From contig QPGO01000005.1 in NCBI GenBank assembly GCA_008632985.1, positions 495,863-515,862 of the forward strand: a DNA stretch of 20,000 nt, in the 5' to 3' direction. The notes below the pieces were generated by a model that was not told where the DNA came from, did no database searches, and saw only the letters and a list, made by a program, of their open reading frames with translations. Made by a program: the position numbers and the translations under genes. Below, one piece after another: positions 1 through 20,000 of the stretch (its first letter is position 1; the number at the start of each line of letters is the position of its first letter). This DNA is from Psammoneis japonica (Eukaryota).

Positions 1-1000
1 TGGCATGCGGAGATCAAGAAAAGTGAGTGCGAGAAGTCCGGAGAAGCAAAAAGAAGAAGAAGAAAGCGCCGACCGGTGACACGGAGAAGGTGAAGGCAAT
101 GAACAGCCCAATGGTGGAGAGCAGCAGGGATGATGACAGCAACAACGATGAGCAGGAGGAAGGCGCAAAAGGCAAAACGGACGAGGGAGGAGACGAGTCC
201 GATGGAGACGAGTCCGACAATGATCGTCAGCTTAGTTCAAGAGAGTTGCAGCAAGAAAATGTGCGCACAGTTGGCATGGCACTCAGTCATTGCACTGCAG
301 ATGTAACAAGGGATTGACTTAACCGATGAAATGCTTTTCTTGTTTAAAATGATGTTTGCGAAAATTGACAAACCAAGGATTGTGTGGCAATGCAATTGCG
401 CACTGGCATGTGGCAACAAGGTGGAGGCAGAAACAGTGATGTGGGTGTGCAGTGAAAAATGGCACACACAATTCTCAATGAGTCATTGCAACATTGGCAC
501 ACCAAACTTGTAANTTCATTGCACAACAATTTTTTTGCAACATTTTGACAAATTGTCATCATGCAAATCTGCACATTTTTAACATTTCGTGCACTCTGAT
601 GTTCTGTTGACTGCAATTGCGGTGCAAGGTCAAACGAGACAAAGACTTCAACGAGGTCACAAACAGCGAAGCCCGTTGCATGCAACGGCTCTCCAACAAC
701 TGATTCATTCATCAGAGACAGACAGCACAGCCCGCCATCCAGGCCCGCCAGACCAACAGGAGAGTGGTCTGTGCCCCCCCCTTGCTCACACACTCGAGGG
801 TTTTCCACAGGCTCTGAGCCTGTGGGTTTTCACCACCCGTTTCACCATTCCCCAGCAGGCCAGAACCGAGCCGCGGCAACCTCACTCTTTCTTTCCAGAT
901 GAACAGAGAGCGGATGTGCTTCTGAATTCGAGATTCGAGAAGCCTATTTTGACCATTGGTGAACCCTGTGTGTGACGAGGCTGGCAACCGTATTTTTCTT
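1..1000. other. TpA-depleted degenerate region, probable mutated repeat/transposon remnant (includes a K/E/D-rich ORF fragment 27-317 and an N at 514)
   Basis: Hand count gives only 6 TA dinucleotides in 1-940, despite an AT-rich stretch at 300-600. TG/CA is abundant. No recognisable protein family. Repeat origin is inferred from the similar signature in the retroelement at the right end. Confidence 0.45.
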
Positions 1001-1087
1001 TTGCACGGCGAACAAGAAAAAAAAAAATCTCGGTGACACCACCCTCGACACTTTAATACAGTACAGTATCGTACACGAAATTTCACC

Positions 1088-2716
1088 ATGTCGGAACGCG
1101 GTGCCAACCAAAACAGCTTGGCAACCGAGCTCCAGGTCTTGTTGAGGCCTCTCGCGAACAACAAAGCTCCGGAGCTTTCGATTCTCGCCGCGGCATCGAT
1201 GCCCGCTGATGCGAAACGTAGAAGCAATAGTGATTCCGAAGGCAACGGACTCATTTTCAAGCACATCGAATCCGATCAGCTGAGACTCTTTGAACGGCAC
1301 GTTGGGCCGTATCAGGAAGTGCTGGGCAATGCTCTTATGCACACTCGAAATCTTCGCAGCGATGAAATCTTTGAGTTCGAGTCAGATGTCGACGAACCTG
1401 TCAGTGGGGAACGATTTGAGCATCCAATCAATCGTTTAATCCAAGGACCTCGGCCAGATCTATGTGTCTGGGTGGGGTTATTTCTGGGGAGAGACGCGGA
1501 ACAGCGAGCTCGTGCTCAGTTTGAAGAAAACAGAGAGGAAGGAGAGCCATGTTATGGAAATGTACTCACTGACATCGAGCAGGCAGCATCGGGATTGTCC
1601 ATATTGCAGTTGCTCCGAAATATCCTAAAGTATCTCTCGGAAGAAGCTCGTCGACTGGGTGATGCAGCCAAAATGCTACGCTTCTGTGCGCTTTATGGCT
1701 TGAGTGGTGCCATGTCGGATGTCTTGGATGGAAAATATGGTGCAGTTGGCCAACAAGGTACCGTTCTTACGATTGACACGGCACTGCCCGCAAAGTCGGA
1801 TGACGACTATACGGATGATGATGATGATGATTATGATGATGATTATGATTTTTTATATGGAAGCCTTTTAAGCATGCCAGCATATTCGTTCGGAGTCACT
1901 CTGGGGTATTGTAACGTCGTGCGCCAGGCGATCACGTGCTGTGGTGCCAACATCGATGCGAAGTTCTATTTGAAGGACGGCCCGTTTGAACCACGCGAGT
2001 TCGACGGCTTGCCAGCGCAGATGTTGCTATGGGCGATCAAGAGAAATCAACTAGAAATGGTCAAATGCTTGGTGAGGGACTTTGGGTTTCAGTTTCGGTG
2101 GTTGGCGACTAGTACCTTCGAGGAGCTATACGACCTACTCTTTCACATTGACGCCGTGAACGACGAGTACGGTCCTTGGCGAGGGCTACAGTACGATTCT
2201 GAGAGATGTATGTTTGTTCTAAGTGTGCAGCGCAAATACCGTGCATATGGTTGTTACCAGCGCAAACAGGCAATGCTCAAGGCCTTGATTGAAGTTGGTC
2301 TCCCGCAAGAACTGCTTCTCCCGCAACTAGACCTGACTCGTGATAAAGAAGTGTGGAGCCAAGTTCAAGCCCGTGGCGGTGACAGCAGTAGCGATACATC
2401 GCAAGAGTACTTGAAGTCACTCAGTCGTGTGGAACGTCGTGCCCGTGAGAAGGTCTTTACGGCGACGGCTGAAGCCAACGAGCATCGGAAGGAAATGGAC
2501 GAGCTGACGTACATTGCCTTTTACGAAGACCATGCCCAGAGCCTGTGGGAGAATCAGCCGACGGTGCAGGCGACAAGGCTTTCCAAAAAGGAAGATTTTG
2601 ATCCACGCTGGAAGGAATACGAAGAAAAGGGAGAAGACGCGTTCCTGCCGTGGTGGGCTTGCAAAAGCGAGTACGATGACACTGATTCTGACATGGAGGA
2701 CACCGACTATTACTAG
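1088..2716 (+). CDS. Intronless hypothetical protein (542 aa) with a possible ankyrin-like helix pair and an Asp/Tyr-rich tract
   Basis: Long ATG-initiated ORF. LLWAIKRNQLEMVKCLV resembles an ankyrin repeat core. Acidic run SDDDYTDDDDDDYDDDYD and acidic C-terminus. Confidence 0.75.
   Translation: MSERGANQNSLATELQVLLRPLANNKAPELSILAAASMPADAKRRSNSDSEGNGLIFKHIESDQLRLFERHVGPYQEVLGNALMHTRNLRSDEIFEFESDVDEPVSGERFEHPINRLIQGPRPDLCVWVGLFLGRDAEQRARAQFEENREEGEPCYGNVLTDIEQAASGLSILQLLRNILKYLSEEARRLGDAAKMLRFCALYGLSGAMSDVLDGKYGAVGQQGTVLTIDTALPAKSDDDYTDDDDDDYDDDYDFLYGSLLSMPAYSFGVTLGYCNVVRQAITCCGANIDAKFYLKDGPFEPREFDGLPAQMLLWAIKRNQLEMVKCLVRDFGFQFRWLATSTFEELYDLLFHIDAVNDEYGPWRGLQYDSERCMFVLSVQRKYRAYGCYQRKQAMLKALIEVGLPQELLLPQLDLTRDKEVWSQVQARGGDSSSDTSQEYLKSLSRVERRAREKVFTATAEANEHRKEMDELTYIAFYEDHAQSLWENQPTVQATRLSKKEDFDPRWKEYEEKGEDAFLPWWACKSEYDDTDSDMEDTDYY
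1799..1849 (+). repeat. Coding GAT/TAT microsatellite (poly-Asp with Tyr)
   Basis: gatgatgatgatgatgattatgatgatgattatgat lies within the 1088-2716 ORF. Confidence 0.8.
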
Positions 2717-3172
2717 ATTAGCTGGACTAGCTAGTAGCCAGTTGAAGTGTTTTATTGACGTGCTTCTTCGGAACCTACAATACTTTTGTTTCCTGTAAGC
2801 ATGGTACGCCGATTGTAATTGCTATGAAAATGTTATATTTCTGGTGAAATCTCAATTGCGAGAAGCCCGCAAGACAATTGGTGCCGGATGAGATGGACGA
2901 CATTATGGTCCTACACATAGTCTATGTTCTCATGAATTGCAGGTGCAATAATGCGGTTGATGAATTGACACTGACGTCAGAAATCCGATGGTGCGTGCTT
3001 GATTGAAGTACTACAGCAGTAGAGAGCACATTGCTGCTCCAGATTTTTCAGCGAATGTGCCGCAGAAGAGAGTACGGAAACGAAATTTTCGCACTGGCGA
3101 AGAGTTTCACAAAAATCTTGAAAACCTTCATTGGAACGAGCTGAGATTGTGTAGCTGCAAAGTCATCGAACG

Positions 3173-4372
3173 ATGTCCCTCCAAGGCAAATATCATCCAG
3201 GTATATGCGAGGCAACAGCCTACGGGAAGCGCTACGGCAAGAATTTGACTCCTCAGCGATATGATTCTCCGGGTCATTGCTGGCACTTGGCAAAAGACAA
3301 GAATTGGTCAACGTGGAGCTGTTGTGGGGGCAAGGCAAACTCGCCGCCCTGTCAAGATCGTCCAGCTGGATACCTTCATTCATCAACTTCAAACAGTGGT
3401 CAAGACGTTGGTGTGGGAGCATACATCCAATTCTTGATTAATAACCGCGATCGCGTTCTTGTTGTGGGCGAGAACACCCGGTGTTGGCTGCTTTCATCCG
3501 GGCGAGTAGCCAAAAAGGGAACACAGTACGTATCATGGGTGTGGGCGAAGGATGCCGAAGATGACAAAAGACTATCCAGCGAGTTGCGATCTCTGCTCAG
3601 CGTTCAAGTCAATGGATTCTATTCGGTTGGGACATGGGGCTATCATACCGCTGAATCGGTAGGTCAGGCGTTGCCAGGATTTTCTCCAAGCCCTCCTGGT
3701 GCAGAGATTTGTGGCCGCTACAAAGTGCTGTATGTGGCAGCACTCCGCTATGATCAAAATCGGCGTCAAGCTTCTAGTTTGCTTCGTAGAGTCCCGAAGA
3801 GTGGGCAGCTCGTCCTTTCCAGTAGCTCTAAACGATTCTCTGTCGGCGTGTCTGACAACACGGGACGCCGAACAGAGCACGTCACAAGCCAAACGATTCT
3901 CTATGGACATGTGCTCCTCCAAGACGAAGGGTCTTCAATCGATCGCTACTTTGGGCCTGGCTATCGGTTCTATGGGTTTGGAGCAGATTCAGAAGCCGCC
4001 GGCCGCTACACACACAAAGCATCCAACGCAGGCTTAATTGTGACATGCAGGAATGATAACAAGGGCCGGATCTATCAAGTTTCCGAGACGAAGGCTTTGC
4101 CTCTCGTTGAGAGTGAGCACAGTCCAATCGTCCCCAGCGCGTCTACCGAAACACAAAGTCGCGAAGCAAGGGAAGCTCAACGTATCTGTAGATGCCGTCA
4201 CTATTCCTTTTTATGCAAGAATTTAAGCCTACCTTGCAGTGTCGCAGCTCGAATTACAGCTTTTGCTTGTGAACTTCCTCCGTTCATCTTTGCTGAGCCT
4301 GGAGATGTTTGGATTGATGTTCGCCTTTCAACACCTGTGAGAACCTATGTCCTAGCTCGTCGAGTGGACTAG
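3173..4372 (+). CDS. Intronless hypothetical protein (399 aa) with an N-terminal BTK-type zinc-binding motif
   Basis: ATG ORF. YHPG...WSCCGGKANSPPC matches the YHP-x(n)-W-x-CC-x(7-8)-C pattern of the BTK motif. C-terminal LCKNLSLPCSVAARITAF is reminiscent of a SOCS-box-like LPxxxxxxI segment. Confidence 0.7.
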   Translation: MSLQGKYHPGICEATAYGKRYGKNLTPQRYDSPGHCWHLAKDKNWSTWSCCGGKANSPPCQDRPAGYLHSSTSNSGQDVGVGAYIQFLINNRDRVLVVGENTRCWLLSSGRVAKKGTQYVSWVWAKDAEDDKRLSSELRSLLSVQVNGFYSVGTWGYHTAESVGQALPGFSPSPPGAEICGRYKVLYVAALRYDQNRRQASSLLRRVPKSGQLVLSSSSKRFSVGVSDNTGRRTEHVTSQTILYGHVLLQDEGSSIDRYFGPGYRFYGFGADSEAAGRYTHKASNAGLIVTCRNDNKGRIYQVSETKALPLVESEHSPIVPSASTETQSREAREAQRICRCRHYSFLCKNLSLPCSVAARITAFACELPPFIFAEPGDVWIDVRLSTPVRTYVLARRVD

Positions 4373-4896
4373 ATGTTGGACTTTGTGACTAAGTGGGCGA
4401 GGTAGAGAGGTAGAAGAGCGAACGCATGATGCTGGTGACACCGGTGGAGATGCTATCCAACTAGCAGGCTCGTTGCACTAAACTGTTTTCGTGTGATGTA
4501 CCAAGAAAGAATGACATGTAATTGGTAGTATTGTCGTTAGAAATTTAGAAGTGTGACTCGATGTAGGTTATAGGTGGCTGCCTGCCTTGCGGATATTCTA
4601 ACCGATCCTACAGTATCTTCTCCTTCTAGGTGGTGCCCTCATAATCACACTAAAAGTTTTCCATTCGCACTTGTGTGTCACACCGAGCTTGGAATGCCCC
4701 TCGCTCTCTCTAGTAGAGCTGCTCTATTCTCTCTAGCTAGAGAGTAGAGAGAAACGGTATCCTTTGAGACCGCCATTTGGGCGGGGTGGAGAAAAAGTTT
4801 GGGTTATGAGTTTGTGCAGACACGGCTGACGAATGCCGCAACAACAAAGTGCGGCGATTGGCGATATTTCGTAACTTCCCTGCTGTTCTTTCGATC

Positions 4897-5512
4897 ATGG
4901 TGGATAAGAAACCGGCGCCGGTCCTTACTTTTGAAGAGCTTTCTGCATTCTCTCGAGTGAGTAATTTCCCATTCTTCTTTTTTGGCCAAGACATTGACAG
5001 CCAAATGTCTCTGGATGTGCAATACGTACAAATTGGTACTGGACCTACGTTGATGGATCTTCGTTCGTCTCATGTCGGAGCGGTGTTGCACATTCGTTAT
5101 ATCTCACGCATGTTGCTTCTTTTTGTTCTGAAAGGTGTTTGAAATATCTTGTGCTGAAGCTGCCAAGGCTTTCACAGTTTCTACAGCCGCCAAACATGGC
5201 CCTATGGACGGAGAGACAATTCGCGCTATGGTAAGAAAGTACTTTGTTGAATTGCCGAAATTTCCGTCTGTAAAAATGTTCTAACAAGTAGCTACTCTTT
5301 GATGGTTATCTCGGGCGTTGAATTAGACTGAACAATGCTTCAAGAATAGCTACACACAGACGACTGAGCTCTGTCCGGAAGAGTTCTCTGAACTTCGTGA
5401 TTGCATGAGGGCAAACCCTAAACGCTTTGCAAAATGCGCCTTGATTAGCGAAAAGTTAGAAGTATGTGCAGCGAAGAACAGGATTGGCGAAATGGCTGTG
5501 TTGAAAAAATAG
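4897..5512 (+). CDS. NDUFA8: NADH:ubiquinone oxidoreductase subunit NDUFA8-like CX9C protein, 113 aa; exons 4897-4956, 5135-5230, 5327-5512
   Basis: Manual splicing used donors GTGAGT 4957 and GTAAGA 5231 and acceptors AAG 5134 and TAG 5326. Product: MVDKKPAPVLTFEELSAFSR/VFEISCAEAAKAFTVSTAAKHGPMDGETIRAM/TEQCFKNSYTQTTELCPEEFSELRDCMRANPKRFAKCALISEKLEVCAAKNRIGEMAVLKK*. It has two perfect CX9C motifs and NDUFA8-like cysteine spacing. Confidence 0.75.
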
Positions 5513-5984
5513 TCTCGGGATAGCCCTTGATTACCGAATCATCGTAGTGATTACCGACCGTTTTCTCTCGTCCCATCGATATCTGCCGTACGTTGCTGAA
5601 AGAGGGCTTTTTGGTCATGCCTTCTATTCTTTCTTGTTAAAAGCTCAATGTAGCTAGGGCCCCTAGTCATCGTATCTTGCACTTCTCTTCGGGAAAGTCG
5701 AGGTGCTATGGTATGCTGTAGTCCTCTCTACTAGTTTTGGAATAAATAAACTCGGTTCGGTTCTCGACTTTCATTCCGATATCCGTCAGCGCGCGTGGCG
5801 CGCGGGCCTCGCCCGTCCTGTCCGTCCAACGTCCGTGGTGCGGTGAGTTCCCTACAGACCAGTCAGTCCGTCTACACGTGGAAGTCCAGAGGTCGGAGGC
5901 AAAAACAAAGAGTGAGAGAATCTCATCACTCATCATTCATCATGGCGCTTATCTATCGTCAGCAAAGCTAGCTCACTGTTGACA

Positions 5985-7454
5985 ATGAATCAAATATCGT
6001 TTTCGTCAATGCTATATCTGGTTGTTTATGTTGGCTCATGGTGTGATAGAAGATTTTCGTCTCACGCGTTTGTTCCAACCAGACGTTGCAGAAGTTTGGG
6101 AGGGTTGCCTCCTTCTTTGGTTTCGGTTCGAACAAGTTTTGACACGGGGTATAAGCCTCTGAATGTTGGGGACGGAGATTTCAGCCAAGAGGAGCAGGAA
6201 GAGGAGGCTCTTCAGTCGCTTCAAGATTATCATAGGGGAAATTGGAAGGGACGAGCTACATCCTTTTCTGTTACCGCGGACACAGCGGCTGGTATTGTGA
6301 AACGATACACAAGTCCCGAGTACCAAGCATCTGTTCGGCTTGACAGGGGAAGTCAAGATGCTTTATCAATGACGGAAACATTACAGTGGGAAGATAAGGT
6401 GGTTTCTCGAAATACTCCGCTTTACTCAAACATGGACGTCGATGCTGTTGATGCTTCGTATTCTGTTGATTCAACCTTGCCTACTCTCCCTTCCGACATC
6501 ATTGGCACGGACAAGTTGATTCAATTTGGAATTGAGCATTGTTTGGCAACATCTGATGACGAACGTGTAAGGTGCTTTGCATTGTATGGAGTGGATCAAG
6601 CCTTGGCGCGAATTGTAGTTTGCGAAGAAACAAGAGTTCAGTCGACAACAACTCCCGAACTGAACAGAAATGGGAAAAGTAGTGCTCCTCCCACTAGTTC
6701 TGATTCAATCCTTGGCAAAATTACTGAGAAATCTGATGACGGAAGCATTGCGCTATCACGATATCCAATAAGTCTGATGGATTTGACGTCAAACGTTTGG
6801 TTGGGAGACACTGTTGTTCGAGATTTGCCTCACGTCCCCGTCTCCAGTACCGTCGGTAGGGGCTTTGGCTCTTCCACAAATGCTAAGTCGAGTGCATCAC
6901 CTTCGTTCGCGAACTGGGAATTGGGAGTTCAAAAAGCCGCTTCTCGCTTTGAATGGGATTTTGATGAGTCGATTAGCGTCCTACATGACTTTGGAAGAGG
7001 AATGGGTGCGGAAACATCTCCCTCCTTGCCAAGAGCTTTGTCGGGCAGACTCTGTGTCAACGAAAGCTTCTCTCGTCGTATTCCAAAGGAAGAGAGGATG
7101 GTATACATCGATTATGACAACGGCGACCATTGCGGTTTTCTAGTGGGATCGGCATATGTACAGGTAAGTGTGATCCACCGTTCATGCTATTGGTCCCGGC
7201 GACGAGCTCAAAATGTTTCATTTTTCTTTCTTGTTCAGATTCCTCGCTTTGTTTCGTTTTCCTCAACATCTACGCAAGCAAAATCATTCTTTACAGACTT
7301 TTCCGTCTTCCAGTCAAATGCAGTTGCGACAGATGAAACAGAGAAAGAAATATGCTGTTCCAGAATCACACGATTGTACAACTTTGAGATGCAACTGAAA
7401 CAAGGAAGTACGTCATTTCTTACTATCAAAGAGTCGAGAGATCCTCGTCCATAG
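5985..7454 (+). CDS. Plastid-targeted protein, DUF3598-like (two beta-barrel-like halves); exons 5985-7163 and 7239-7454, 464 aa
   Basis: Hydrophobic N-terminus followed by SHA|FVP (ASAFAP-type cleavage motif) and an R/S-rich transit peptide. GNWKG and NVWLG motifs open the two halves. In-frame 75-nt intron CAG|GTAAGT...tttttctttcttgttcag. Confidence 0.75.
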   Translation: MNQISFSSMLYLVVYVGSWCDRRFSSHAFVPTRRCRSLGGLPPSLVSVRTSFDTGYKPLNVGDGDFSQEEQEEEALQSLQDYHRGNWKGRATSFSVTADTAAGIVKRYTSPEYQASVRLDRGSQDALSMTETLQWEDKVVSRNTPLYSNMDVDAVDASYSVDSTLPTLPSDIIGTDKLIQFGIEHCLATSDDERVRCFALYGVDQALARIVVCEETRVQSTTTPELNRNGKSSAPPTSSDSILGKITEKSDDGSIALSRYPISLMDLTSNVWLGDTVVRDLPHVPVSSTVGRGFGSSTNAKSSASPSFANWELGVQKAASRFEWDFDESISVLHDFGRGMGAETSPSLPRALSGRLCVNESFSRRIPKEERMVYIDYDNGDHCGFLVGSAYVQVSVIHRSCYWSRRRAQNVSFFFLVQIPRFVSFSSTSTQAKSFFTDFSVFQSNAVATDETEKEICCSRITRLYNFEMQLKQGSTSFLTIKESRDPRP

Positions 7455-7687
7455 CGTAACGCTATACCAAGAAGCACGAGGGATGTAAGGAAAGCTACAC
7501 ACGTTAAACAAGGACTAAGAATTTGCGACGTCTTTATTTTTTTCTGGACCCTTTCAAGGGTGTTCGATGCAGTATCCGATTCTCAGGTGGCGACGCAGAT
7601 AGAAAGGTATTCACGCATGAAATGAATTTCGCTGAAAATCAAAATAAAAGATTAGAACATGTTGCGTGTTTGTTGCGTTTCGGCCCT

Positions 7688-10600
7688 CTAGTAACTGCCT
7701 CGCGCTTGAAAAGACTCGACTTCACCGCTGCCCACGGACTCAGCAGCGATTTCATCGGCGCAATGCATGCGGATCCTTTCGCTCGTAGCCGGCATCCTCA
7801 TCTCAAAATATTCATCCTTATTTAACATGTCCTTTCTGCAGGAACGAACAGCATCCTTGATGGCATAGTAGACACTTGTGCCTAGAAAGAAAGGCGGCTC
7901 TCCGATGGCTTTGCTGCTATGAACAGCAAAAGGGTTATCCACGTTCTCCAAAAGAGACACGTTAAATGTCTCTGGCACATCGTTGAAAGCTGGAATCTTG
8001 TAGGTTCCGGGACCAGATGTGAACAATCTTCCTGTAGGCCGCACCCACGTGTGGTCGTCGTCTGCCCATACAACTTCTTCGATCGTACTCCAACCCATAC
8101 CTTGAATAAACGCACCTTCAACTTGTCCAATGTCAATAGCAGGATTGATACTTGAACCGACATCAATGATTATATCGGTACGAAGAGTGCGATGGTTTCC
8201 GGTAAGAACATCAATTTCGACCTCTGCGAACACAACTCCCTGTGTGAAATAGTTGAACGGGTGTCCCTTCCAAGAGTTTTCAGGCAGGGCCGAGGAGTAG
8301 TCATCGGGCTTTGCTTTTGCCCAATCGAATCCGCAGCGACTGCTGTCAAGGGCAAAGAAACCGTGAGCCGAGAGGTCGATCCTATCCATGTGCGCGGCAG
8401 ACGCTACAGCGCTCAACGGGGCATCCGGTCCAAGCTTTTCCCTTACTGGTTCCAACCGAGCCAAGATCTGGCGACACGCATCCAGAGTGGCCATGCCATA
8501 TGTATCAGTGCTCATTGAAGCAGCAGTTGGAATGCTAGAGAGACAAGGTTTAAGAGGAGGACGACATGAGACGAGACTTGCACGATGTGTAGGTGCTGTA
8601 TGTGCAGACTCCGGATCACTTACGTGTTTGCCACCTTGTCGGTACTGGAGTCGTTGACATAGACATCTTCAACGGGGATTCCGAAGGCTTGTGCAGCCAC
8701 TTGGCAGACCTTAGTGTGCAGGCCTTGCCCCATTTCTGTACCACCGTGAGAAACGAGCACAGTTCCGTCCGTGTACAAGTGGACCAAAGCCCCGCCTTGG
8801 TTCATGAATTTTGCGGTGAAAGCAATTCCAAACTTAGTGGGCACAACAGACACTCCTCGCTGCAACCACTTGTTCTTGGAGTTGAAATCAGCAGCTTCGG
8901 CGCGTCGCCGTGCCACTCCTAGTTCGTTGTAGATCCTGTCCCACATGGTGGGAACGTTCCACTTCCCACTATACTGTTCCCCGATCACCATTCCAAACGG
9001 GGTACTCTGTCCTACCTTGTACATATTGCTACGGCGAATCGTGTCGCCAGGCACCTTGCAAGCCACTACCAAGTGATCAATTACATGCTCGGCGATAGCC
9101 ATTCCTTGCGGTCCCCCAAATCCGCGGAACGCAGTGTGAGGTGGCTACTCGAGAGAAAGAAGAGAAAATGTTGTTAATTCTGCGTGTGTAACAGTCCACA
9201 GGGATGCTTGCATAAATAAATCATACCTGAACCGTTTTGCACGGTACACCTTCTGCCCGGAAATTGGGCCAGTAGTAACAACCGTCAACGTGAAAGAGGG
9301 CGCGGTCCATGACAGGGGAAGACAAATCGAGCGCACAGCCACCGTTATTGTACAGTTTGGCGTCGAAAGCGTGCAACTTCACCCCCTCTTCGGTAATTAC
9401 AGCACTGGCCTCGTAGAAAGCAACGAAGGCATGCCTCATACCGGTAATGCTCATGTCAACATCGCGACCGAGCGTCAACCGCACCGGACGACTGCTAAGT
9501 TTTGCAGCTACAGCAGCAGCGCAGGAGGCGAAAACGCTTCGCGTTTCCTTCCCACCAAAGCCACCACCCATGCGTTTCATACGCACTACTACTTTCGAAG
9601 CCGGGGTACCGGTAGTTGACGCACAGTATGTCTGAGTCTTGGTCGGTGCCTGAGAGGACGTGTAAATGGTGAGGTTGGTATCAGATTCGGAGGGAACAGC
9701 CAAAGTTGAGTTCGTTTCAAGATAAAAATGCTCTGTGGCACGTCAGAAAGCGAAGAAATGGGGATGAGAAACAAGATGATGCGGAGCCGATATGAAAAAC
9801 CTCGATACAAGTCACCTTGACAGCCAGAACGAAATGACCCAGAGACTTTGATGACATCGCCTACACTAGGATTCTCGTTTCCCTCAGCAAGATCTTTCAG
9901 CTTGTCAATCTCGCCAATGTCACCACGTTCCATAGAGTGACGGGCGTACTCATAATAGCTATTACCGGCAATAGCATCTTCGATGCTAACGATTGGCTTC
10001 TCTTGCACTTCACCGTATTCCACTTTGACTGAGCGAGCTCCTGCTTCCGCGCTTTCAAGGCTCTCGGCCACCACAATTCCAAGTACTTGTCCGACTGTCG
10101 TTACTTTCTCGCCAAGTGGGAGGAACAAAACCTCATCGTGGACTACGGGGCCAAGCTCATTGTTTCCTCCAATGCTCGCAAGATCTTTGTGAGTGTATAC
10201 CCCTACAACACCAGGAACCTTCAGTGCTTCTTCCGCATCAATCGATTCCATTGTTGCACCACATTGACTTGATAGAATCATGGCGGCCTGAAGAGTGGAA
10301 GGAGGAAGGGGTATATCATCTGTATAGAGAGCCTCACCAGTACAATGCAGTGGTCCAGACTGGTGAGTGGTCGGTTTTCCAACCGTCTCATTCGATTTGC
10401 TAGCATCAGCCGCCGCCTTGGCCATAGGATACATTTTCTCTTCGAGGCCCCGCGCCACCTTTGGAGCAGGGTATTTCTGCACTCCCTTATAGGAAGGTTT
10501 CTGTTCCATCAAAAAGTTCTGCACGCCACTCACTTCGGTTTCATCCACAGATGGCACCGGTGGCAACGATGTGTTCCCAGATGATTCAATATCCTTCTTG

Positions 10601-12871
10601 AGAGATTCGGTGACTGCCAAGAAGAACTTGTAGAGAAAGGAAGCAGTCAACGTCATTCGATAACGCTCCTGCCCACCGGGAGTGATGTCAGGCAGCTTCA
10701 TCTCCGCCAGCATCACCTTTCGGGCTTCCTTGAACGATTCCTGGCTGAAGGGCTTTCCGATCAAGAACTTTGCCGTCTCGCTGGCCATTATCGTTTTCGG
10801 CGCCATTCCGCCAAAAGCCATACGAATGTCGCCAACAACAAATGCACCGTCTTTGACTTGTAGGCGAATCCACATGCCTGCCGTGACGATGCTGTATAGA
10901 GATAAGAAAAACACTCGTCAGTAAATACAAAAAGAAGCGAGACTTCTGCAAATAACCGCGCACCTGATGTCATCTTCTCGTCGGCGAGCCTGCTTAAACG
11001 GCAACGCATACTCAAACTCAGTCTTGACAAGCGGAATCTCGATCTTTTCAACGAGTTCAGTCGGTTCCAAGTTCACCGTACGATACTTTAGGAAGAACTC
11101 CGACACTGGAACAACGCGCCGAACAATGGCTTTATTTTCTCCAATGGACGATAGAATGAGTTTGGCGTCCAGACATGCCAAGACGGGGTTCATGTCGGAG
11201 ATGGGACTTGCTGTCACCAAATTGCCTCCCAAACAAGCAACATTTCGAATTTGTGTGCCCGAGAAGAAGCGAAGCATGTCATGAATGATTCGGACCGTCT
11301 TGCTCAATTCCGGCGTGCTTGCAAGACTGTCACACTTGTGCTGGATTGTACTGAGGGATGTACAGGAACCAATCTCTAAATGAGTGGAAGTCACGTTGAA
11401 CGCAAAGAGCGGCTCAATCTTGTCGGAAGGGAAGAGTAAACGAGGGTACACGGCATGCTTGAACTTTGTTTCTGCGAGTAGAAAAACACGTGGCCGACCA
11501 ATATGAGAGATACTATCTGAACATGGCTACTGCAGAATCTGCGTAGAATAAATGTACGTACCGATACCGACTTCGGTGTTTCCAACAACAATTTTGCAAC
11601 CTCCTTGACCAGCTCCACCGAATTCAGAGAGCAACCCGAGTAACTCCTCAAGCGTCGTGGGCTTGAACCATGTACCACCGGCGTGGAAATCTGTCCGATC
11701 AACTACAACCAATGGCTTTGCAAGCTGTGTGTTTTCTTCCGACTCTGCATTCTTCAACTCGTCTGGAAACATGTTGTCTGGCTGCTTGAGCCATGTCGGG
11801 CTCTCCTTGACAAGTGTCTCTTTGTATTGTCTCATTTTGTCTTGAGAAGACGAAGAGCAAATCTTGCTACCACCATTCTCAATCTTTTTCTCTTCTTCTT
11901 GTTCCTTATCCTTGACGTTGCAATCCTCTGTGCATTCCTCCCGTTCTGGGCATTCGCGACAAGGGGTCCCACATGGTCCGCGAGTCGTCACTCCGTCGTC
12001 ATCACAAAGCGACCTTGCTGCATCCCAAATGGGACGGTACCCCGTACAGCGACACAGGTTACCGTCCAAATGCTCCTCGAGATAGGCAGGAGTGGGATTG
12101 TTGGCAAAGAGAGCATAAATTGCAACGATAATACCGGGAGTACAGAATCCTGTTGTAGGGCAAGTGCCCATACCGTAGCGAGTGAGTAAAAGCAAAGAAA
12201 GACGGTGCGCAGACAACGGTACTCAGAAAAAGAATGACACACACTCAAGCACATACCACACTGGGAACCGTGCATATCAACCATGGCTCGTTGAATAGGA
12301 TGGAGATTATCGCCCTTTACGGTTCCTACTCCCTCCACAGTTGTGATGTGACAGCCGTCAGCCGCAAGGACCGGCATGAGGCATGCATTCACCGACATGT
12401 GTCTACAAAAAATAAGAGGTCGAAAACTTGTGAGAGAAATGCTCTTAAACAGTACCCAGTCTACTCCGCTTCACGTTTTCTTACTTGATTGCGTCTCCGT
12501 CGCCCTTCTTTGACAGCATCACGGTACAAGCGCCGCAACCTCCCTCTGCACACCCGAGTTTGGAGCCCGTCAAATTCATTGTGTCTCTGAGAAACGAAAG
12601 AAGAGTTTGATTGGGACGCGCCTGTGACGCCAACTTGTCGGGGACTCGTGATCCATTGACAAACAAAATGGGGCTGGTGCGGTATCCTACAGGAGACAGA
12701 ACAGTAGAAGGTGTGGGTGTCAGCGTGTGTAATCGACAGAACTTTGATGAATCTAAACGAATCAATCAACCGTGGCTATGCAGTCTACGTAAGAAGCTTA
12801 CCTTTACTCAGGAACGATGGGAGAAGTTCCACATCTTTGTTCTCGTAGATGAGAGTGCCGTTCGGCGCCAT
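7688..12871 (-). CDS. XDH: Xanthine dehydrogenase, 1487 aa, 9 exons: 12871-12802, 12686-12485, 12402-12257, 12149-11562, 11471-10964, 10891-9816, 9732-9227, 9144-8624, 8534-7688
   Basis: All eight introns are GT-AG and phase-compatible; exons total 4464 nt. 2Fe-2S motifs [18 protein letters not shown] and [12 protein letters not shown]-domain motifs [19 protein letters not shown] and RREDDIS. Moco-domain motifs [32 protein letters not shown] and SSKAIGEPP. Residues equivalent to bovine Glu802, Arg880 and Glu1261 are present, which favours XDH over aldehyde oxidase. Confidence 0.97.
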
Positions 12872-13194
12872 GGTGTCAACTGTTCGACTGAAGCGCTCCT
12901 CCCGCCAAATCAACGGAAGTTGACAGGCATAAAGTAGGTAAGATCCTTTACGTCATGCCGTAGAAAAATACTATTGCCGTACGATACGTTGATCCAGTAC
13001 TTTTTGTTCGTGGCGTTGGCAGCAGTTTTTGAGTCGAATGGTTCGAATCGGCATTTGCATCCAATTCAGATTTCAGCGAAGATCTTGGATCTGGAAATGA
13101 GAACCCGAGCGATTGGCACGAATCGGCACTTCGGTCCACAACACCACAGTAAGACAAAAAGAACTCAAGAGTAGAAGCATTGAACAATAGCGCC
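12872..13194. promoter_or_regulatory. Short divergent intergenic region (323 bp), probable bidirectional promoter
   Basis: Lies between the XDH ATG (12871, minus) and the VOC gene ATG (13195, plus). Inferred from geometry only. Confidence 0.5.
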
Positions 13195-13987
13195 ATGATT
13201 GGATCTCTGGGCTTGAAGCATTCCTTCCAAAAATGTGCTCTTGTTGGGAGGCGGCTTGTCGTTCAGAGCGCGAGTTGTAAGTCGCCGTCGTTATTTTTGC
13301 GACACTTTGCAACCACATCGGAACGCCCGTTTACAATTCTCGGATTGCAGCAAGTTGCTGTTGGATCCTTGCAAAAGGAATCCTTATCGGATCTCTGGGA
13401 AGGAGTGTTTGGATTGACAAAGGTTGGAAGCTTCCAAAGTGAAAAAGAAAATGTGGATGAAGATATCTTGCGACTCGGTCCAGAAGGATCGCCTTATGCA
13501 GTTGAAGTGGATCTCATGACACCGATTGATGCCGAGAAAAGTCCAAAAGTATGTATTGAAGCATATTTATGTGTTTTGGTTGGACTGTGTCGTTATTATT
13601 GTTGACCGATTTCTGTCTCTGTCATACATTTCTTCGTCATTGATGTAGGTTCATTCACCGCCCTTGAATCACATTGGACTGTGGGTAGACGATTTGGAGG
13701 CGGCAGTTACCTGGATGGAAGATAATGGTATGTTTAGAGACACCTTTGTAAGATATGCTTCTTGCAGTTGAATTGTTCTTGGATTCTCATTCCTTGCTTC
13801 GTCTTCGTTCGTGTGTTTCTGCAAAGGCGTTCGGTTTACGCCCGGAGGCATCCGCAAAGGAGCTTCAGGTCATAATGTAACCTTTATTCATCCAAAAGGA
13901 AATGAAAAGGCTCCCATTGGAGGGGCAGGCGTGTTGATTGAGCTTGTACAAGCACCCAGCGATGTCATTCAAGAGCTCAAGAAGTAG
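13195..13987 (+). CDS. VOC/glyoxalase-superfamily protein, probable mitochondrial methylmalonyl-CoA epimerase; exons 13195-13548, 13649-13727, 13827-13987; 197 aa
   Basis: Spliced product contains [61 protein letters not shown] and GVLIELVQ. The N-terminus is R/S/K-rich and lacks acidic residues up to LRHFATT, like a mitochondrial presequence. Confidence 0.85.
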
Positions 13988-14309
13988 AATGGGTTGGAAC
14001 AAAGGATAGGCCCCTGCGAGAGCAACCTGGTTCTCTCTTGGGTTGTTATTAAAAAATTAGATTGCTTCTCATAGACAATACCGTCCATCCCTACTGTAGA
14101 CTGCGTTTCAATTCAGGGCGAGAGAGCACATTCACAATATTTGTGAGTCCTACATACAGTACGTGCTGGCAACTATTAATTATGCTTGAGAAAAGCGCGC
14201 TTGGCGAATGTTGCAGCTACTGTAAGCTTTCCCCACCAACCATTCTGTTTTGAAAAACCATAGCTTCTTTAGCGCTTGTGGACGTGGTAGGATGCCGTTT
14301 GCGCTAGTG

Positions 14310-14520
14310 AGTAGTCTCTAGGCTCTCCACACGCATAGCTCTCTCTAGCGAGTATGTTCCTAGAGAGTAGTAATAGGGCCCTCTCGACTCTAGAGTAGTA
14401 GCTACTACTCTCTACGGTCTAGCTCTCTAGCTAGAGAGCTCTACTCCTGAAGTACATAAGGTTTAGAGAGTACAATAGAGAGAGGTCTACAGTACCGGTA
14501 CCGTACCGTGCGGTACTCCC
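14310..14520. repeat. CTAG/AGAG/GTAC-rich low-complexity patch with two perfect 20-bp palindromes
   Basis: agagtagtagctactactct (14392-14411) and agctctctagctagagagct (14421-14440). GTACC repeats at about 14492-14516. Confidence 0.8.
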
Positions 14521-14578
14521 CAAAATAAAAGCGACGTTACGCCCACCCCACTCCCGGCTTGGGAGGTCTGTACCCACC

Positions 14579-14646
14579 CGTTCGCCGGCACGACTCGTTC
14601 GCCGGCACGACTCGTCCGTCGCCACGACTCATCCGCCGCCACGACT
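14579..14646 (+). repeat. GC-rich 17-bp minisatellite, 4 copies
   Basis: cgttcgccggcacgact x2, cgtccgtcgccacgact, catccgccgccacgact. Confidence 0.9.
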
Positions 14647-14670
14647 CTTGCCCATCGACCACCGCCGCCG

Positions 14671-14830
14671 TGAGGACGTGACACGCCTCATAATTGTTAT
14701 TATTTATTATTCGTTATTTATTATACAATACTGAATAAGATATATCATAATACTCTAATTAGGAAATGTAATACATACATTCAGTGTCTTATACTAACAC
14801 TCATAATGAACACGTGCTATCGACTCCTCA
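14671..14830. mobile_element. Candidate solo LTR or MITE-like 160-bp AT-rich insert
   Basis: Begins TGAGGA and ends TCCTCA (inverted termini, TG...CA). AT-rich interior in GC-rich flanks. CCG on both sides, but no 5-bp target-site duplication. Confidence 0.35.
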
Positions 14831-15042
14831 CCGCGTGTGACATTCGACATTTGCGAACCCCTCGATGTACTGTACTGTAAGACACTTGAAAAAGGCGGGA
14901 AAGAACACATAATCAAAAATTGAAATAATTGTTGCCACGAACCAAGGCACCTATTGCGTTCACATTGAACACATATCAGTCAAACTGTCGGTCTCTACCT
15001 CCACTCGCGGTCCTCATACATTAAAAGGGAATACATGAGAGC

Positions 15043-15576
15043 ATGATTGTTACCAATTTAAAAGAATTCGAGAAGCGATTTCCGTCGTGGAAGAATCTCA
15101 TTCAACTCGTTGCCCTCTCTGCAGTTATTCTCGGAGCGGGGGAATCTCTTCCTCTATTTTTGAAAGGTGTAGCGAATCTTACGCGCGAGAATATCCTGAA
15201 ACCCTTTGCATTTCCTGTACAAGAGAGTCCATTTAACTTGGGATTCCACAGTATCGTATCGAAGGACGATTTCTTCTTTGCAGTATTCGCAGGTCCCACT
15301 GAGAACGGATTTGATATTCATATCGCCAAAAGCTTTGATGCTGATATTTGGGAAGATGAAGAAATCATCCGGTACAAATTTGGCAATGCAAGCAAAGAGA
15401 ACCTGCCAAAGAGTCTCCGTGTCGGATGGGATGACACCGAACCAAGCGAGGAGCGCCTCAAGATTGTGTGGGGACAAGGCGATGCTGAGTTTACGATTGT
15501 TGGGTCCTTCGATCAGAAAGGAAAATGGAGTGGTTCCCATGCGGTGAATATTGTCCCATGGTCCGACACTCGCTGA
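15043..15576 (+). CDS. Hypothetical protein (177 aa), intronless
   Basis: ATG ORF with natural composition and an N-proximal hydrophobic stretch (LIQLVALSAVILGAG). No family recognised. Confidence 0.55.
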   Translation: MIVTNLKEFEKRFPSWKNLIQLVALSAVILGAGESLPLFLKGVANLTRENILKPFAFPVQESPFNLGFHSIVSKDDFFFAVFAGPTENGFDIHIAKSFDADIWEDEEIIRYKFGNASKENLPKSLRVGWDDTEPSEERLKIVWGQGDAEFTIVGSFDQKGKWSGSHAVNIVPWSDTR

Positions 15577-15754
15577 GAAGAAAAGCTTTATACATGTTTT
15601 CAGGGACGATTCGTCCCTTGTCGCATAATACATGATGAGAACTCGCGTGCGTTATAGGCTGTAGTACTTAGAGTACATCATGCCGCACGTATTAGTATCA
15701 GCACTTGATGTTTAAAAACTACAATAAGTTGTACCAACTTTAAAAGCTGCGCAT

Positions 15755-16580
15755 TTAGATCCCAGGCGTTGGCTGGCAGTGAAACGGTGTTGGACAGGCT
15801 GCGATCTTAGGAACCACCATCTTTGCAATTTGGGTTCCTTTATCTGGGTGGCATGCCTGACACAATCCCAAATCTCCTGCAACGCTCAAAAAGATAAAGG
15901 CATCTTCTGGTGTAAAGCCCCACTGATTCACCAACAGTTTCTGCGCCTCTTCGCAGGCCACGACGGTAGCTTGTGGAATATCGGTGACGGTCACTCCATG
16001 TGTTGCCCAGTGTGTTCGCGTTTCCGTTACAGGGAACTGAACACCGGCACCCTTTATATCTGCAGCCTTTAGAATACTACAGCCGAGCAGAACGTCCCCT
16101 CCAACCTCGACGCCTGTTCCACTAATCTCGCCATCACCCTGTGACGCATGCATGTCGCCTAAACTTAGCAACGCTCCAGCATGTCGTACAGGGAGATGCA
16201 GGACACTCCCAATCGTATTCATTTTGTTATCAAGGTTTCCACCATGCCTTCCAGCGGGCATGGTGGGGACGCTGTCATCGCCCTCGGGTGCAACTCCTAC
16301 AACACCAAGCATGGGACTCGCTGGAAAGGATATCTCGGCTTTGATAGGCTTGGTTTCGTTTGCATTTCGTTGCATGGCAACCTTCCCATTCTCGATTGAA
16401 AAGAACCGTGTAAAGCCATTTTCGCATGTATGACAAAGCTGTCCAGACGATGGACCACACATGGCAACTCCAGTGTCGCTGGGACAAATATTGAGAAACT
16501 TTACCGACAGCACGTCGCCAGGTTTTGCACCCTTGACAAAGATTGGACCAGTAACAGGGTTCATTTCGTCGCGATCAACT
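15755..16580 (-). pseudogene. Acetamidase/formamidase-family (FmdA/AmdA) gene, 5' end missing or displaced by the LTR element
   Basis: Motifs NPVTGPIFVKGAKPGDVL, PMLGVVGVAP, HGGNLD and LSLGDMHASQGDGEISGTGVE. The frame closes at TGA 16646-16648, with no ATG upstream of the internal Met at 16564 and no N-terminal segment carrying the usual (E/D)TxD-type motif. Confidence 0.8.
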
Positions 16581-16581
16581 G

Positions 16582-16885
16582 TGTTTGAAGGTGACGACGA
16601 GTCACGAGTCAACAACCGAGTCTGATTCACGGATGACGCTCCCGGTCATGGATCTCTTCTTCCGGAAGAAATGTCCGTTGAGTCTTATAGCGATAGTAAT
16701 CGGAGTGACACACACGACCGTTAGGTCATAATGTCATCTCCAATCCCTCGTGAGATCTTCTCACAATTCGTATCTTTAGCGTATCTTATTGTCCCAAAAC
16801 CCACTTCTTATCATCCTCTGTTGTATTGTACAACCTCAAGAGAGTCCTGAACTCTCCATCCTACACAGTGTATTGTTGTATCCCA
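16582..16885 (+). repeat. Putative 5' LTR (about 300 bp)
   Basis: Several TG starts (16580/16582/16586/16592) where the amidase homology ends. Ends ...tatccCA at 16885, 3 nt before the PBS-like motif. The 3' LTR is outside the window, so this cannot be confirmed here. Confidence 0.5.
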
Positions 16886-16888
16886 AGT

Positions 16889-16900
16889 GGTTACGACCCC
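16889..16900 (+). other. Putative primer-binding site
   Basis: GGTTACGACCCC is a 10/12 match to GGTTATGAGCCC, the complement of the initiator tRNA-Met anticodon arm used by copia-type half-tRNA priming. Confidence 0.5.
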
Positions 16901-17067
16901 AATCCACGCACCGGTGTCAACTCGTGACGGAGTTGCTGCCACTCGTTCGTCTCGTTACAGACGACATCCTGTCCAACGGCGATCTTCTGTGTCGCAATCC
17001 AACGGCGATCATCTATATCGCAATCCCTACCCACTAATCGATCCTCTGTGTCGAATCATCCATAACC

Positions 17068-20000
17068 ATGTCCATGGATCCTGACACCGTCAAGATGTTT
17101 GCTGAGGCCTTCGCCAAGATGCAAACCTCGACCAACCCTCCTACGATCCCCACGCCGCTTCGCGGCGGTGTCCACCACTCTCATGGAGTGCATCTGGGCG
17201 GTTCGGCTCTGAACAACAAGTACGAGCAGACCGACACCCGCACCTGCCGTTTTGCCTCGCAACGTCGCCATCCGAAAGCTGTCGACTCCATCGAGCGATC
17301 TCTCAGAGATCAACTCGCCTCGGCAACCACATCCAAGTTCAACGGCCAGATTGAGTTATCCAACGGTTCCAGTGCTGAACTGGACAAAGACCACTTCGTC
17401 AAGACCATTCAGGACTTAATCGAGTTGCACGGACAAGAAACTTTCCACCATCTCAAGAAAGTCGACGGCAAGGTCGTGCACCTTTTTGATCATCTTCACG
17501 CCTTCACTGTCAAAGACCTTGAGAAGGAACATGAGACCCGTGTGGCGGCTACAGGTGACGAAGGCTACGATCAGGGGTCTGTCTCATTTGTGATGGCTCT
17601 GGATGCCTGCAACGCCAGTGCTCTGGTTGACGTCAAGGCCGCCAAGGAAAAGTTGAATGACTTAACTCTGGACAACTGCCCTGGCGAAGACTGCACCGAG
17701 CTTGCAACCGAAGCTCTGCGCCTGCTCAAGATCATGCAGACGGACCATGCGTCACCAGTTGAAACTGGGTCTGCCATTTTATCTAAGGCATCAAAGACAT
17801 CCTCCGAGTTTTTCAATCGTCAAGTTTTTGCCAAGCTCGACTCCGTCAAGCGCTTGGAGCGCAAACATCGCTTGCGTGACCCGGCAGAAGTCCCCAAGGA
17901 TGCCGACTGTGCGGATCTTGGACCTGTTGGCCTCATTGGCTGGATCACCAAGACCCATGGCGAACTCATTAGCGATGAAGATTGGCCTGCCTTAGCAGCC
18001 AAGCTCCCGGAATCCAACCTCGCCAAGGACCACTCGGAAAAGCATTGCCACGGCTGTGGCAAGGTTGGGTGCACCAAACGCACGTGTCCTGCCTGCAAGG
18101 AGCAATGCAAGAAGGACAAACAGGGCACGGCGGACAAGTCCAAGGATGACCCTCCGGATGTCCGGAAGACTAACCCTTCCAAGAAACCACCCAAGCCGGC
18201 CTGGCGTTTCGTTCACAAAGGTGCCACTGTCACCGACGAGAAAGGCACGACCTGGCACTGGTGCGACAAGTGTGTGAACAAGGAAACGGGCAAGAAGGGC
18301 ATGTGTCAAGGCCACTCCTCCGCTCAACACACCGGGAAACCGTCTGTCAACACCGACACCGCCGCTGCGGCAAATTTATCTGCTGTGTCGGACCCTTCTT
18401 CGGGCATTCCTTTTGGTCCTCCCGAGCAGACGACGTCTCCGCCTACAGACGAACCCTCTGACCCTAACGAGCTGGTTCATTGCGGCATGTGGTGTGCACC
18501 AGTGGACGACTCTTTGAGTTCGACTCCAGTGACTACGTCCGTCTCGTTCACTCCTGCTCCATCGGCCGAGAGGGAGACTGCCGTGGCCAAACCCACTCCC
18601 ATCTTGGTTGAAACGGTTGCCCCCGAAGACGCTGACGATTACTCCGAGTGCTCCGACGCTCACTCCTCTTTTGACTCCCTACCGTCAGCTATCGAGCTAT
18701 TTCCGGCCCACACCATGCACGAGATTCAAAATCCGGACGTGTTTTATGACACGATCGCAACTCACGTGGAAGGTCTGTCCGACGACGTGTTAGACGATCT
18801 CGTTTCCGGGGCAAGCATCCTACTTTTCGAAGACAGCTACGAGCACTTACCTCCAAGCACCCAGTGTCGCGGTTTCGAATTTTACGATCCCGAACCCCAA
18901 GATGTTGATTGTGGCGTCGAGGAGGCAACGCCGAGCTCTCGTCTTGAGCTTTTCTGGAACTTCTTGAAGCTCCGAGTTTTCTGGCTGTTTGCTATGTTCT
19001 GGGAAACGGTACTACACATTTGCTGTGCGCCGATTCCTGTCTTACCTCGTCGCATGCGCCGTAAGGCATTCATCCCAACCATTCACGGTTTCCCCTCTAC
19101 CTGGATGGTGCTGACTGGAGCTATCATGGTCTGGGCGTCTGTTTTCAACGGTCAGCCTCCCACGTATCCATTCTCCAATGTCCCTTCTCGCTTCTCCAAA
19201 GCTGGCTCTCAGGTCCACTCGATCATTGAAGAACTAGACGATAAGATGGTGTTAGATCCGGGCAGTTTGGTGGAATACAACAAGATCAAGGCGCGACAAG
19301 TGCTTACCGAATTTGTGGAGCGCGATCCGGACCATTATCTGAGCAAGAAATTCACGCGGCTCTGGGAGAACGACGCATGCTCTTCCCCAGGCCGCTGTAT
19401 CCCTCCAGCTCTAGAAGACCTCGAGTCCTACTTCGACACCTGTGATTCAGAGGAAGCCCTCGACCCGCTCCCGACCGAGCCGAGCCACTACTTTGATGCG
19501 GTTGAGGAGCTCTCTCCGGACTATTTTCGTTTCGACGAGCTGTCCACCAAGTTTGGTTTCGTGGACACCACTCCATGGCAAGACCCTGTGAAGCTTCTCC
19601 AGGCAGCTACTGACGGAACCGAAGCCCATCCTGCTCATACCTCTGTGCAGGTGTTGACGGGCCAACGCTCTTTAGCACAACTCGCCGCCGACCCGCAAGC
19701 TTTGCTGAGCCTAGCACATGAGCGCCACACCGTCATATGCGACACTGGCGCATCCCTGGCCATTGCTTACGATGAAAATGACTTTGTCGGACCTCCAACG
19801 ATCCCTGATGGCCCATTGAAGCTTGGGGGTCTAGCAAAGGGCTTAACCATCGCCGGCATCGGACCCGTCTCCTGGGTTTTCCATGACGAGGACGGCTCTG
19901 AGCTCGTCGTCAAGACGATGGCGTACATGCACCTCAGGCCGGACAACGTCTTCTATCCCCACAACGCCTCTACAGTAAGGAACATGGCGTGACAGGAAAA
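17068..20000 (+). pseudogene. Copia gag-pol polyprotein (gag, Zn knuckle, long spacer, protease), hypermutated and frameshifted at about 19927
   Basis: gag motifs MALDACNAS, PGED.TELATEALRL, TSSEFFNR and WPAL. Knuckle CHGCGKVGCTKRTC and second motif WHWCDKC...H....H. Protease VICDTGASLAI and LGGLAKGL.I.GIG. The conserved RLLSPQ continues in a shifted frame after 19927. Confidence 0.88.

Follow-up and report, generated by a model that had tools for sequence, protein, structure and literature searches.

In the 20,000-nucleotide stretch of contig QPGO01000005.1 analysed here (the window), the dinucleotide TpA is strongly depleted in two long tracts. One of them, T2 (about 17101-18450), lies in the gag region of a Ty1/copia-like retroelement at the 3' end of the window, and the other, T1 (1-1050), at the opposite end. 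We consider it probable, at roughly 0.7, that both the gag and T1 bear the marks of a process of context-specific transitions, one that turns TpA into TpG or CpA, with the signature seen in Bigelowiella natans. A first-pass annotation, made from the letters of the window, had proposed such repeat-targeted hypermutation for the gag (17570..18640).

TpA is depleted in two tracts of the window

Between 17570 and 18440, TA occurs only at 17663, 17780, 17784, 17970, 17993, 18171 and 18377; the seven sites counted by hand in the first-pass annotation were exact in number and position. Base composition predicts 41.6 TA for this stretch (observed/expected ratio, O/E, 0.17), and even at the TA O/E of the unique part of the window (0.63) 26.2 would be expected (Poisson P = 9e-6). 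In the unique part (1051-16627), 1471 overlapping stretches of 871 nt were scored; none was as TA-poor, the minimum O/E being 0.35. Synonymous codons were also redrawn over 17101-18450 with the present protein fixed, the codons being sampled from the 3' part of the element and from host open reading frames (ORFs). The redraw predicted 39.0 ± 5.1 TA against the 14 present, and 0 of 2000 draws was as low. Thus the depletion is not merely an amino-acid effect.

The full extent of T2 corresponds to nine consecutive overlapping 300-nt segments with TA O/E of 0.09-0.25, and it reaches further 5' than first annotated. Here 14 TA stand against 41.2 expected, and the gag shows a TA O/E of 0.22, a TG+CA O/E of 1.26 and a CG O/E of 0.86. 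The 5' end of the element (16651-17100) is without depletion (0.67-0.79), and its 3' half (18641-19992) is ordinary (0.57). Host exons have a TA O/E of about 0.5-0.6, with isolated 300-nt segments down to 0.22-0.29; hence only the long runs are exceptional. As had been claimed, the neighbouring host genes are normal in TA (0.63 for the unique part) and in tyrosine (Tyr; 3.0-5.0% in three host ORFs). In the element protein, P0001, Tyr occurs at residues 52 and 167 and then from 525 onward, so that 357 consecutive residues (168-524) have none, while containing 15 Cys and 11 His. This agrees with the Tyr-free, Cys- and His-rich run described earlier. The 3' half of the protein has 13 Tyr in 450 residues.

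T1 is depleted more strongly than T2, with a TA O/E of 0.12, a TG+CA O/E of 1.54 (locally up to 2.1) and a CG O/E of 0.66-0.69. There is no TA at all in 601-900, and 601-1050 has 0-2 TA per 300 nt. T1 is mostly non-coding, yet open in many frames on both strands, because TAA and TAG are scarce among its stop triplets (11 of 57, against 545 of 1098 in the unique part). This agrees with the earlier statement that TAA and TAG are destroyed and not created. A Pfam search of four frames within 27-1275 gave no match, and a repeat search within the window found no repeat connecting T1 with the retroelement. Beyond T1, TA O/E climbs gradually (0.37-0.51) into the 5' part of a gene starting at 1088, which could mean that the process leaks into unique DNA.

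Both tracts are associated with repeated DNA. Contigs (Logan) of the public run X1, which contains half of the sampled words of 16600-20000, were aligned to the whole window at 80% likeness. A single contig of depth 59, differing at 5 letters, covers 1049-16627. Summed depth is 1490-4210 over 16676-20000 and 17084, about 290 times that of the unique contig, over 1-667. T1 and T2 accordingly lie in or beside DNA with a summed depth of 25-290 times the unique value. The interval 601-1050 is low-copy and mostly non-coding, and two contigs of depth 24-28 over 806-1078 look like two alleles of a single-copy stretch. The description "repeat-targeted" thus holds for the element and for 1-667, which are high-copy, but not for the undepleted 5' part and 3' half of the element, nor for the low-copy 601-1050.

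Among the TA sites that survive in 17101-18450 and 1-1050, TAA/TTA is over-represented, at 20 of 44 strand-contexts, compared with 247 of 1320 for the unique part (p = 6.5e-5). A recognition context wider than TpA may lie behind this, and a TAA-related preference of that kind could aid identification of the enzyme. TTAA sites in both tracts seem spared. ApT is low as well (O/E 0.39-0.56) in parts of 18001-18600 and of 601-1050, which may be a matter of composition only.

Direction of change and differences among copies

Residues 1-560 of P0001 were aligned with 152 homologs, and a column was taken as a Tyr column when at least 40% of at least 15 homologs had Tyr. At the 15 columns so defined, P0001 has His seven times, Cys four times, Tyr twice, and Leu and Phe once each. 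It keeps the consensus at 2 of these 15 columns, compared with 164 of 260 other columns (Fisher p = 1.7e-4); at a threshold of at least 60%, the figures are 2 of 9 and 110 of 136 (p = 4.6e-4). The combined share of His and Cys at Tyr columns is 11/15 in the window, whereas its mean is 7% and its maximum 33% among 122 homologs. Of the 109 columns at which P0001 departs from the consensus, 17 are explained by one TpA transition; a CpG transition accounts for 2 and some other single step for 50, while 40 have no single-step path. The 17 TA-type steps comprise seven Tyr>His, four Tyr>Cys, two Leu>Ser (TTA>TCA), one Val>Ala (GTA>GCA) and three of the form T|ATG>T|GTG or T|ACN>T|GCN, the bar marking the codon boundary. 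On the coding strand, 10 of them are T>C and 7 are A>G, the two kinds of change that the first-pass annotation had reported. Thus both DNA strands are affected.

The loss of TA and its TpA context, both claimed before, are supported by the 152 homologs and by genomic copies that have TG or TA where the window has CA. Most of the ancestral motifs put forward in the first-pass annotation reappear in the homologs, namely YPGED, Y-A-L-P, K-Y-R-L, V for SKAS and L/M for VSFVMALD. The derivation of WHWC from WYWC was not confirmed, the consensus at residue 397 being K (26/57). That of CHGC from CYGC is weakly supported (consensus Phe, 26/61), although other genomic copies read Cys at this residue.

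Copies of the element in the same genome were compared with the window, and the best-supported 40 of 174 differing places were examined for context. Those in the element represent 18 events: three adjacent TG<->CA doubles, five single TA<->TG/CA differences, two CpG-type differences, two other transitions and six transversions. Hence 8 of the 12 transition events are TA-compatible, three of them being the doubles. The doubles are found at 17604/5, 17866/7 and 18049/50, and further ones at 397/8 and 409/10. At 17866/7 the window reads CAT (His) and other copies TGT (Cys), the homologs having Tyr in 68/91. At 18049/50 CAC stands against TGC elsewhere, with a plurality of Phe among the homologs and Tyr in two of the three closest. 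At 17446, 18478 and 19930 the window has CA and other copies TA (Tyr). The reverse is seen at 17222 and 19123, where the window has TA and other copies TG; at 17222 it keeps TAC (Tyr52; homolog consensus Tyr, 49/53), which is TGC in the others. Wherever the homologs permit polarisation (17222, 17446, 17866/7 and 19930), TA is ancestral. The case for TA is weaker at 17604/5 (consensus Thr, 42/98), 18049/50 and 18478 (consensus Phe). Because some copies carry TG and others CA, leftover TpA sites were mutated after the copies had separated. CpG-type differences were found at 68, 144, 285, 17426 and 18595. In all, transitions make up 140 of the 173 tallied copy changes, compared with about 60-68% among related metagenome elements.

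A metagenome scan with alignment A2 yielded 21 relative loci, while a scan with P0001 alone yielded none. The gag DNA of these relatives has a TA O/E of 0.37-0.82 (median 0.57), against 0.22 in the window. The three TA-poorest (0.37-0.39) have a CG O/E of 0.09-0.40, against 0.86 in the window gag. In L009, L013, L014, L007 and L010 the gag CG O/E is 0.09-0.40 and TG+CA reaches 1.7, which is ordinary methylation decay and not TpA loss. The depletion in the window is thus distinct from CpG decay. TA-type and other single transitions number 46 and 278 in metagenome pairs, versus 5 and 4 in window-versus-copy rows (p = 0.005), the former coming from three pairs, two of which share L012, and the latter from the selected 40 of 174 places. 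A blastn comparison of the window with the 21 loci gave no match over 300 nt, and none of the loci is close enough to polarise DNA substitutions. Two candidate causes were rejected in the course of this work. A compositional peculiarity of the gag lineage was dismissed on the 21 relatives with ordinary TA, and a Cys/His excess from decay of Arg CGY codons on the outgroups, which have Tyr at these columns, and on the normal CpG.

The element and its neighbourhood

The features of the window are collected in Table 1. A Pfam scan of P0001 matched no family, and a protein homology search with P0001 alone gave 3 matches. A profile of P0001 and its three first matches, in turn, retrieved its homologs at E<=1e-3. 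The metagenome relatives L006 and L012 have long open frames in which Pol_BBD, then gag_pre-integrs and then SH3_retrovirus follow the gag. Their contigs end before any reverse transcriptase (RT), and in the element of the window integrase and RT would lie beyond position 20000, where the window stops. P0001 aligns to L006 in both the gag and the protease regions, and it combines a gag Cys/His knuckle with a D(T/S)G protease in one polyprotein, a Ty1/copia hallmark. The domain order of the relatives, together with the knuckle and the DTGAS motif, thus fits the N-terminal half of a Ty1/copia-type polyprotein, as judged from sequence. "CoDi", the name used in the first-pass annotation, is a provisional label for the element. 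A search for direct repeats within the window, where only the 5' side of the element lies, found none.

The ORF stops 22 codons past a missing C, inside the protease region, and similarity to the relatives is lost after that point. P0001 also lacks about 50 residues conserved in its closest homologs. This gap follows residue 167 (17568-17580) and falls between the N-terminal domain and the M-A-L-D/E-x-C-N-A-S motif, and the element family may be a deletion derivative. The earlier view of a long open but dead ORF is supported in part; the Tyr losses alone are insufficient for it, and much of the loss predates amplification.

Table 1. Coordinates of features in the window
Feature	Position	Strand	Remark
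Tract T1, second TpA-depleted tract, stronger than T2	1..1050	.	8 TA vs 42 expected
5' end of repeat, presumed long terminal repeat (LTR) and leader	16628..17067	+	Unique contig stops at 16627; summed depth rises after
974-aa gag-protease ORF of Ty1/copia-like element (P0001)	17068..19992	+	1049 homologs to gag profile
Tract T2, TpA-depleted gag coding region	17101..18450	+	14 TA; Tyr-to-His/Cys columns
Cys/His knuckle of gag (CHGC...CPAC)	18046..18096	+	Second residue CAC (His) here, TGC (Cys) in other copies
3' half of ORF, ordinary TA and Tyr	18641..20000	+	TA O/E 0.57; private TA-type copy differences at 19123 and 19930
DTGAS aspartic-protease motif	19741..19755	+	Aligned to DTGAS/DSGAS of P0004 and L006
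Single C absent from window copy, likely frameshift	19925..19926	+	C present in other copies (depth 681/681, 2 contigs)

Beside the element, Pfam identified parts of two genes, one for xanthine dehydrogenase and one formamidase-like. Over its C-terminus, the xanthine dehydrogenase shares 76% identity with the enzyme of the pennate diatom Seminavis robusta and 81% with its best database match. The host genes look diatom-like by their sequence; we take the host to be a diatom, and it is not Bigelowiella. The start of the repeat (16628) lies only a few bases from where the formamidase-like ORF (15755-16630, minus strand) has its upstream end. As the Pfam match of that ORF does not begin before position 199 of the 373 in the profile, this gene may have been truncated or split by the element. 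Contigs of a second run, X2, skip stretches of 72-178 nt with GT..AG or CT..AC ends between 7160 and 13826 (the xanthine dehydrogenase region and its neighbours), and one X2 contig has a poly-A end at 5564. By this behaviour X2 resembles an assembly of transcripts, and the xanthine dehydrogenase gene has many short introns. Its depth is zero over 1-667 and 16676-20000, which makes it uninformative on expression of the element. The intergenic interval 14250-14700 shows the opposite extreme of composition, with a TA O/E of 1.6-1.8 and TG+CA of 0.5-0.65; it contains CT/AG-rich runs and an imperfect 34-nt inverted repeat (14339-14372 / 14403-14436).

Competing explanations and known systems

The process that we favour would convert TpA to TpG or CpA, equivalent to A>G at TpA in either strand of the DNA. 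Its substrate would be DNA, or the two strands of a replication intermediate, and not sense RNA alone. T>C steps on the coding strand are no rarer than A>G steps, so editing of sense RNA before reverse transcription cannot account for everything. That the TA-free 601-1050 is low-copy and non-coding likewise suggests action on chromosomal DNA, possibly spreading into 601-1050 from the neighbouring high-copy repeat. Part of the action would have taken place before the family amplified, as indicated by the shared losses, and part after it, as indicated by private TG/CA/TA differences. We infer that the process is enzymatic and defensive. All ADAT substrates carry U33-A34, a UpA context in tRNA; a first guess at the agent is therefore a DNA-acting adenine deaminase of the ADAT2/3 or TadA type. 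Alternatively, a mutagenic modification of thymine or adenine at TpA may be responsible, as T>C at TpA through thymine modification would leave an identical pattern.

Several observations weigh against this explanation. The element's 5' end and 3' half are undepleted, which is unexpected if the whole repeat were targeted. A contig of 279 nt (record 6; 17791-18069) at depth 909, or about 15 copies, has only 5 differences from the window. Thus most of the TA loss in T2 is common to the copies and older than the amplification, and the bulk of it could stem from one ancestral episode of whatever nature. The copy differences as a whole are balanced (A>G 38, T>C 33, G>A 29, C>T 40, transversions 33) and, being unpolarised, give no direction. 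The TA-context tally rests on a non-random choice of places, those that were best supported. Identity between the outgroups and the window protein is low, at about 30-37%, and X1 is possibly the source sample of the assembly, so that it gives no independent confirmation of the bases. Finally, the cut-offs given for B. natans in a 2026 preprint (Mettrop et al., bioRxiv 10.64898/2026.01.13.699255) are Rho TpA <=0.43 and CpA+TpG >=1.52 in three successive 1-kb windows. T2 passes the TpA cut-off only (0.22, with CpA+TpG at 1.26) and with 1.35 kb falls short of three windows, while T1 passes both cut-offs (0.12 and 1.54) and is also too short for the three-window rule (1.05 kb).

Editing at the RNA level, in which ADAR-like or ADAT-like A-to-I changes in the element RNA are fixed by reverse transcription and integration, appears unlikely. 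Such a mechanism has been proposed for retroelement copies rich in A>G in animals. The element does replicate via RNA, and the depletion is regional and mostly common to the copies, as if an edited transcript had founded the family. However, editing of the sense strand yields A>G only. The coding strand does not show one substitution type, as 10 of the 17 steps are T>C and Tyr>His (7) outnumbers Tyr>Cys (4). Moreover, T1 includes the low-copy, mostly non-coding 601-1050, and near-identical copies show private TA>CA differences. ADARs are generally considered metazoan enzymes, which also counts against RNA editing. In its favour, ADAR-type editing prefers a 5' U, i.e. a UpA context, according to the same preprint (10.64898/2026.01.13.699255). 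Selection instead of mutation, through avoidance of UpA in the element RNA (e.g. as an escape from a UpA-cutting RNase) or through the codon or amino-acid usage of the gag lineage, is quite improbable in our judgement. UpA is under-represented in the expressed RNA of many eukaryotes, as stated in PMC3829696; single host-exon segments are TA-poor too, and the family amplified with a TA-poor gag. Against these points, conserved Tyr was lost non-synonymously (11 of 15 now His or Cys), none of the 21 gag-family relatives falls below a TA O/E of 0.37, and the deepest depletion lies in the mostly non-coding T1. Further, the occurrence of TG in some copies and CA in others at the same site fits independent mutation better than a state kept by selection.

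Decay of methylated cytosine, CpG>TpG/CpA, could in principle produce the excess of TG/CA and of Cys/His (CGY Arg codons becoming TGY/CAY), the paucity of TA being incidental. TG<->CA differences between copies are its classic signature, CpG-type differences exist, CG O/E is lowered in T1, and several relatives are CpG-decayed. However, CpG decay cannot remove TA, the gag is near normal in CG, the homologs carry Tyr and not Arg at the His/Cys columns, and other copies have TAC/TAT at 17446, 18478 and 19930; we regard it as very improbable. An equally remote prospect is an artefact in which modified bases at TpA in silenced repeats are miscalled and the errors inherited by the assembly. There is an N at window position 514, no sequencing platform is recorded for either the assembly or X1, and the possible identity of X1 with the source sample bears on this as well. 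Nevertheless, the Logan contigs, built independently from X1, hold the same TA-poor sequence at many-copy depth (records 6 and 7), 380 of 1591 aligned contigs are at least 99% alike, the copies differ in outcome (TG, CA or TA) at the same site, and over the 15.6 kb of unique sequence only 5 letters differ.

The first-pass annotation had left it unclear whether such a process was already described. It is described in B. natans, in the preprint cited above, whereas our literature search, with most subscription journals outside its scope, found no report of TpA hypermutation in diatoms. By a term search, Maumus et al. 2009 (PMC2806351), on diatom Ty1/copia-like elements, makes no mention of hypermutation, repeat-induced point mutation (RIP), dinucleotide or deamination. 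Hence, as far as searched, its apparent occurrence in a retrotransposon family of a diatom is new, while the kind of process is already known from the preprint.

If the process is the same as in B. natans, a TpA->TpG/CpA mutator would operate in a second algal lineage, one that is ecologically dominant. There is hardly any record of natural DNA editing of the A>G (or T>C) type directed at mobile DNA. Some diatom species are genetically tractable, and candidate enzymes would be testable there by knock-out. The footprint matters for annotation too. Tracts poor in TAA/TAG yield long open frames on both strands that are not genes, and element proteins with Tyr->His/Cys changes escape domain searches, as P0001 did. 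A broader and distinctly tentative extension is that TpA-directed DNA hypermutation, far from being confined to one chlorarachniophyte, would be an old genome defence shared by at least Rhizaria and Stramenopiles. In diatoms it would hit LTR retrotransposons and other repeats and spill into the unique 601-1050. Elements could survive it by going TA-free; in this family, most TpA of the gag, conserved Tyr codons included, was gone before amplification to tens of copies.

The closest known system is described in the B. natans preprint (10.64898/2026.01.13.699255). In mutation-accumulation lines, 231 of 302 mutations fell in two integrated viral regions; of these 231, 230 were A>G or T>C changes, every one of them at TpA according to the authors. 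The rate in the viral regions was about 6e-7 per site per generation, and the local mutation rate was about 1000 times the background. The genome holds 124 clusters of TpA-poor, CpA+TpG-rich 1-kb windows, TpA-poor coding sequences are enriched for reverse-transcriptase and DDE domains, and an ADAT2/ADAT3 pair was proposed as the candidate enzyme. The window resembles this system in the TpA target, in the products TpG and CpA, and in its regional TpA-poor, CpA+TpG-rich tracts. It also does so in that mobile or foreign DNA is affected, including RT-bearing genes there and a copia-like gag here, and in that single-copy DNA can be affected. In contrast, de novo mutations were measured in B. natans, a rhizarian alga, whereas a long-term footprint and copy differences are seen here in a diatom-like host.

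Fungal RIP is similar in its context-specific, two-strand transitions on repeats, in the degraded element proteins and in a possible leakage into unique DNA, as in 601-1050. It differs in being C>T mostly at CpA, creating TpA and stops, whereas TpA, TAA and TAG are removed here. The C>T/G>A changes of RIP enrich TpA, while TpA O/E in our tracts is 0.12-0.22 and CpG in the gag is near normal (0.86). The footprints of animal ADAR and APOBEC in retroelements share the clustered transitions within a retroelement and the 5' U/T preference for A>G. Unlike the window, in which T>C and A>G occur together and a low-copy, non-retroelement stretch is included, they are single-stranded, with A>G or G>A on the coding strand. 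As for the element itself, P0001 resembles the diatom Ty1/copia-like LTR retrotransposons in its gag-protease polyprotein, and in its relatives a gag_pre-integrase and a retroviral SH3 domain follow the protease.

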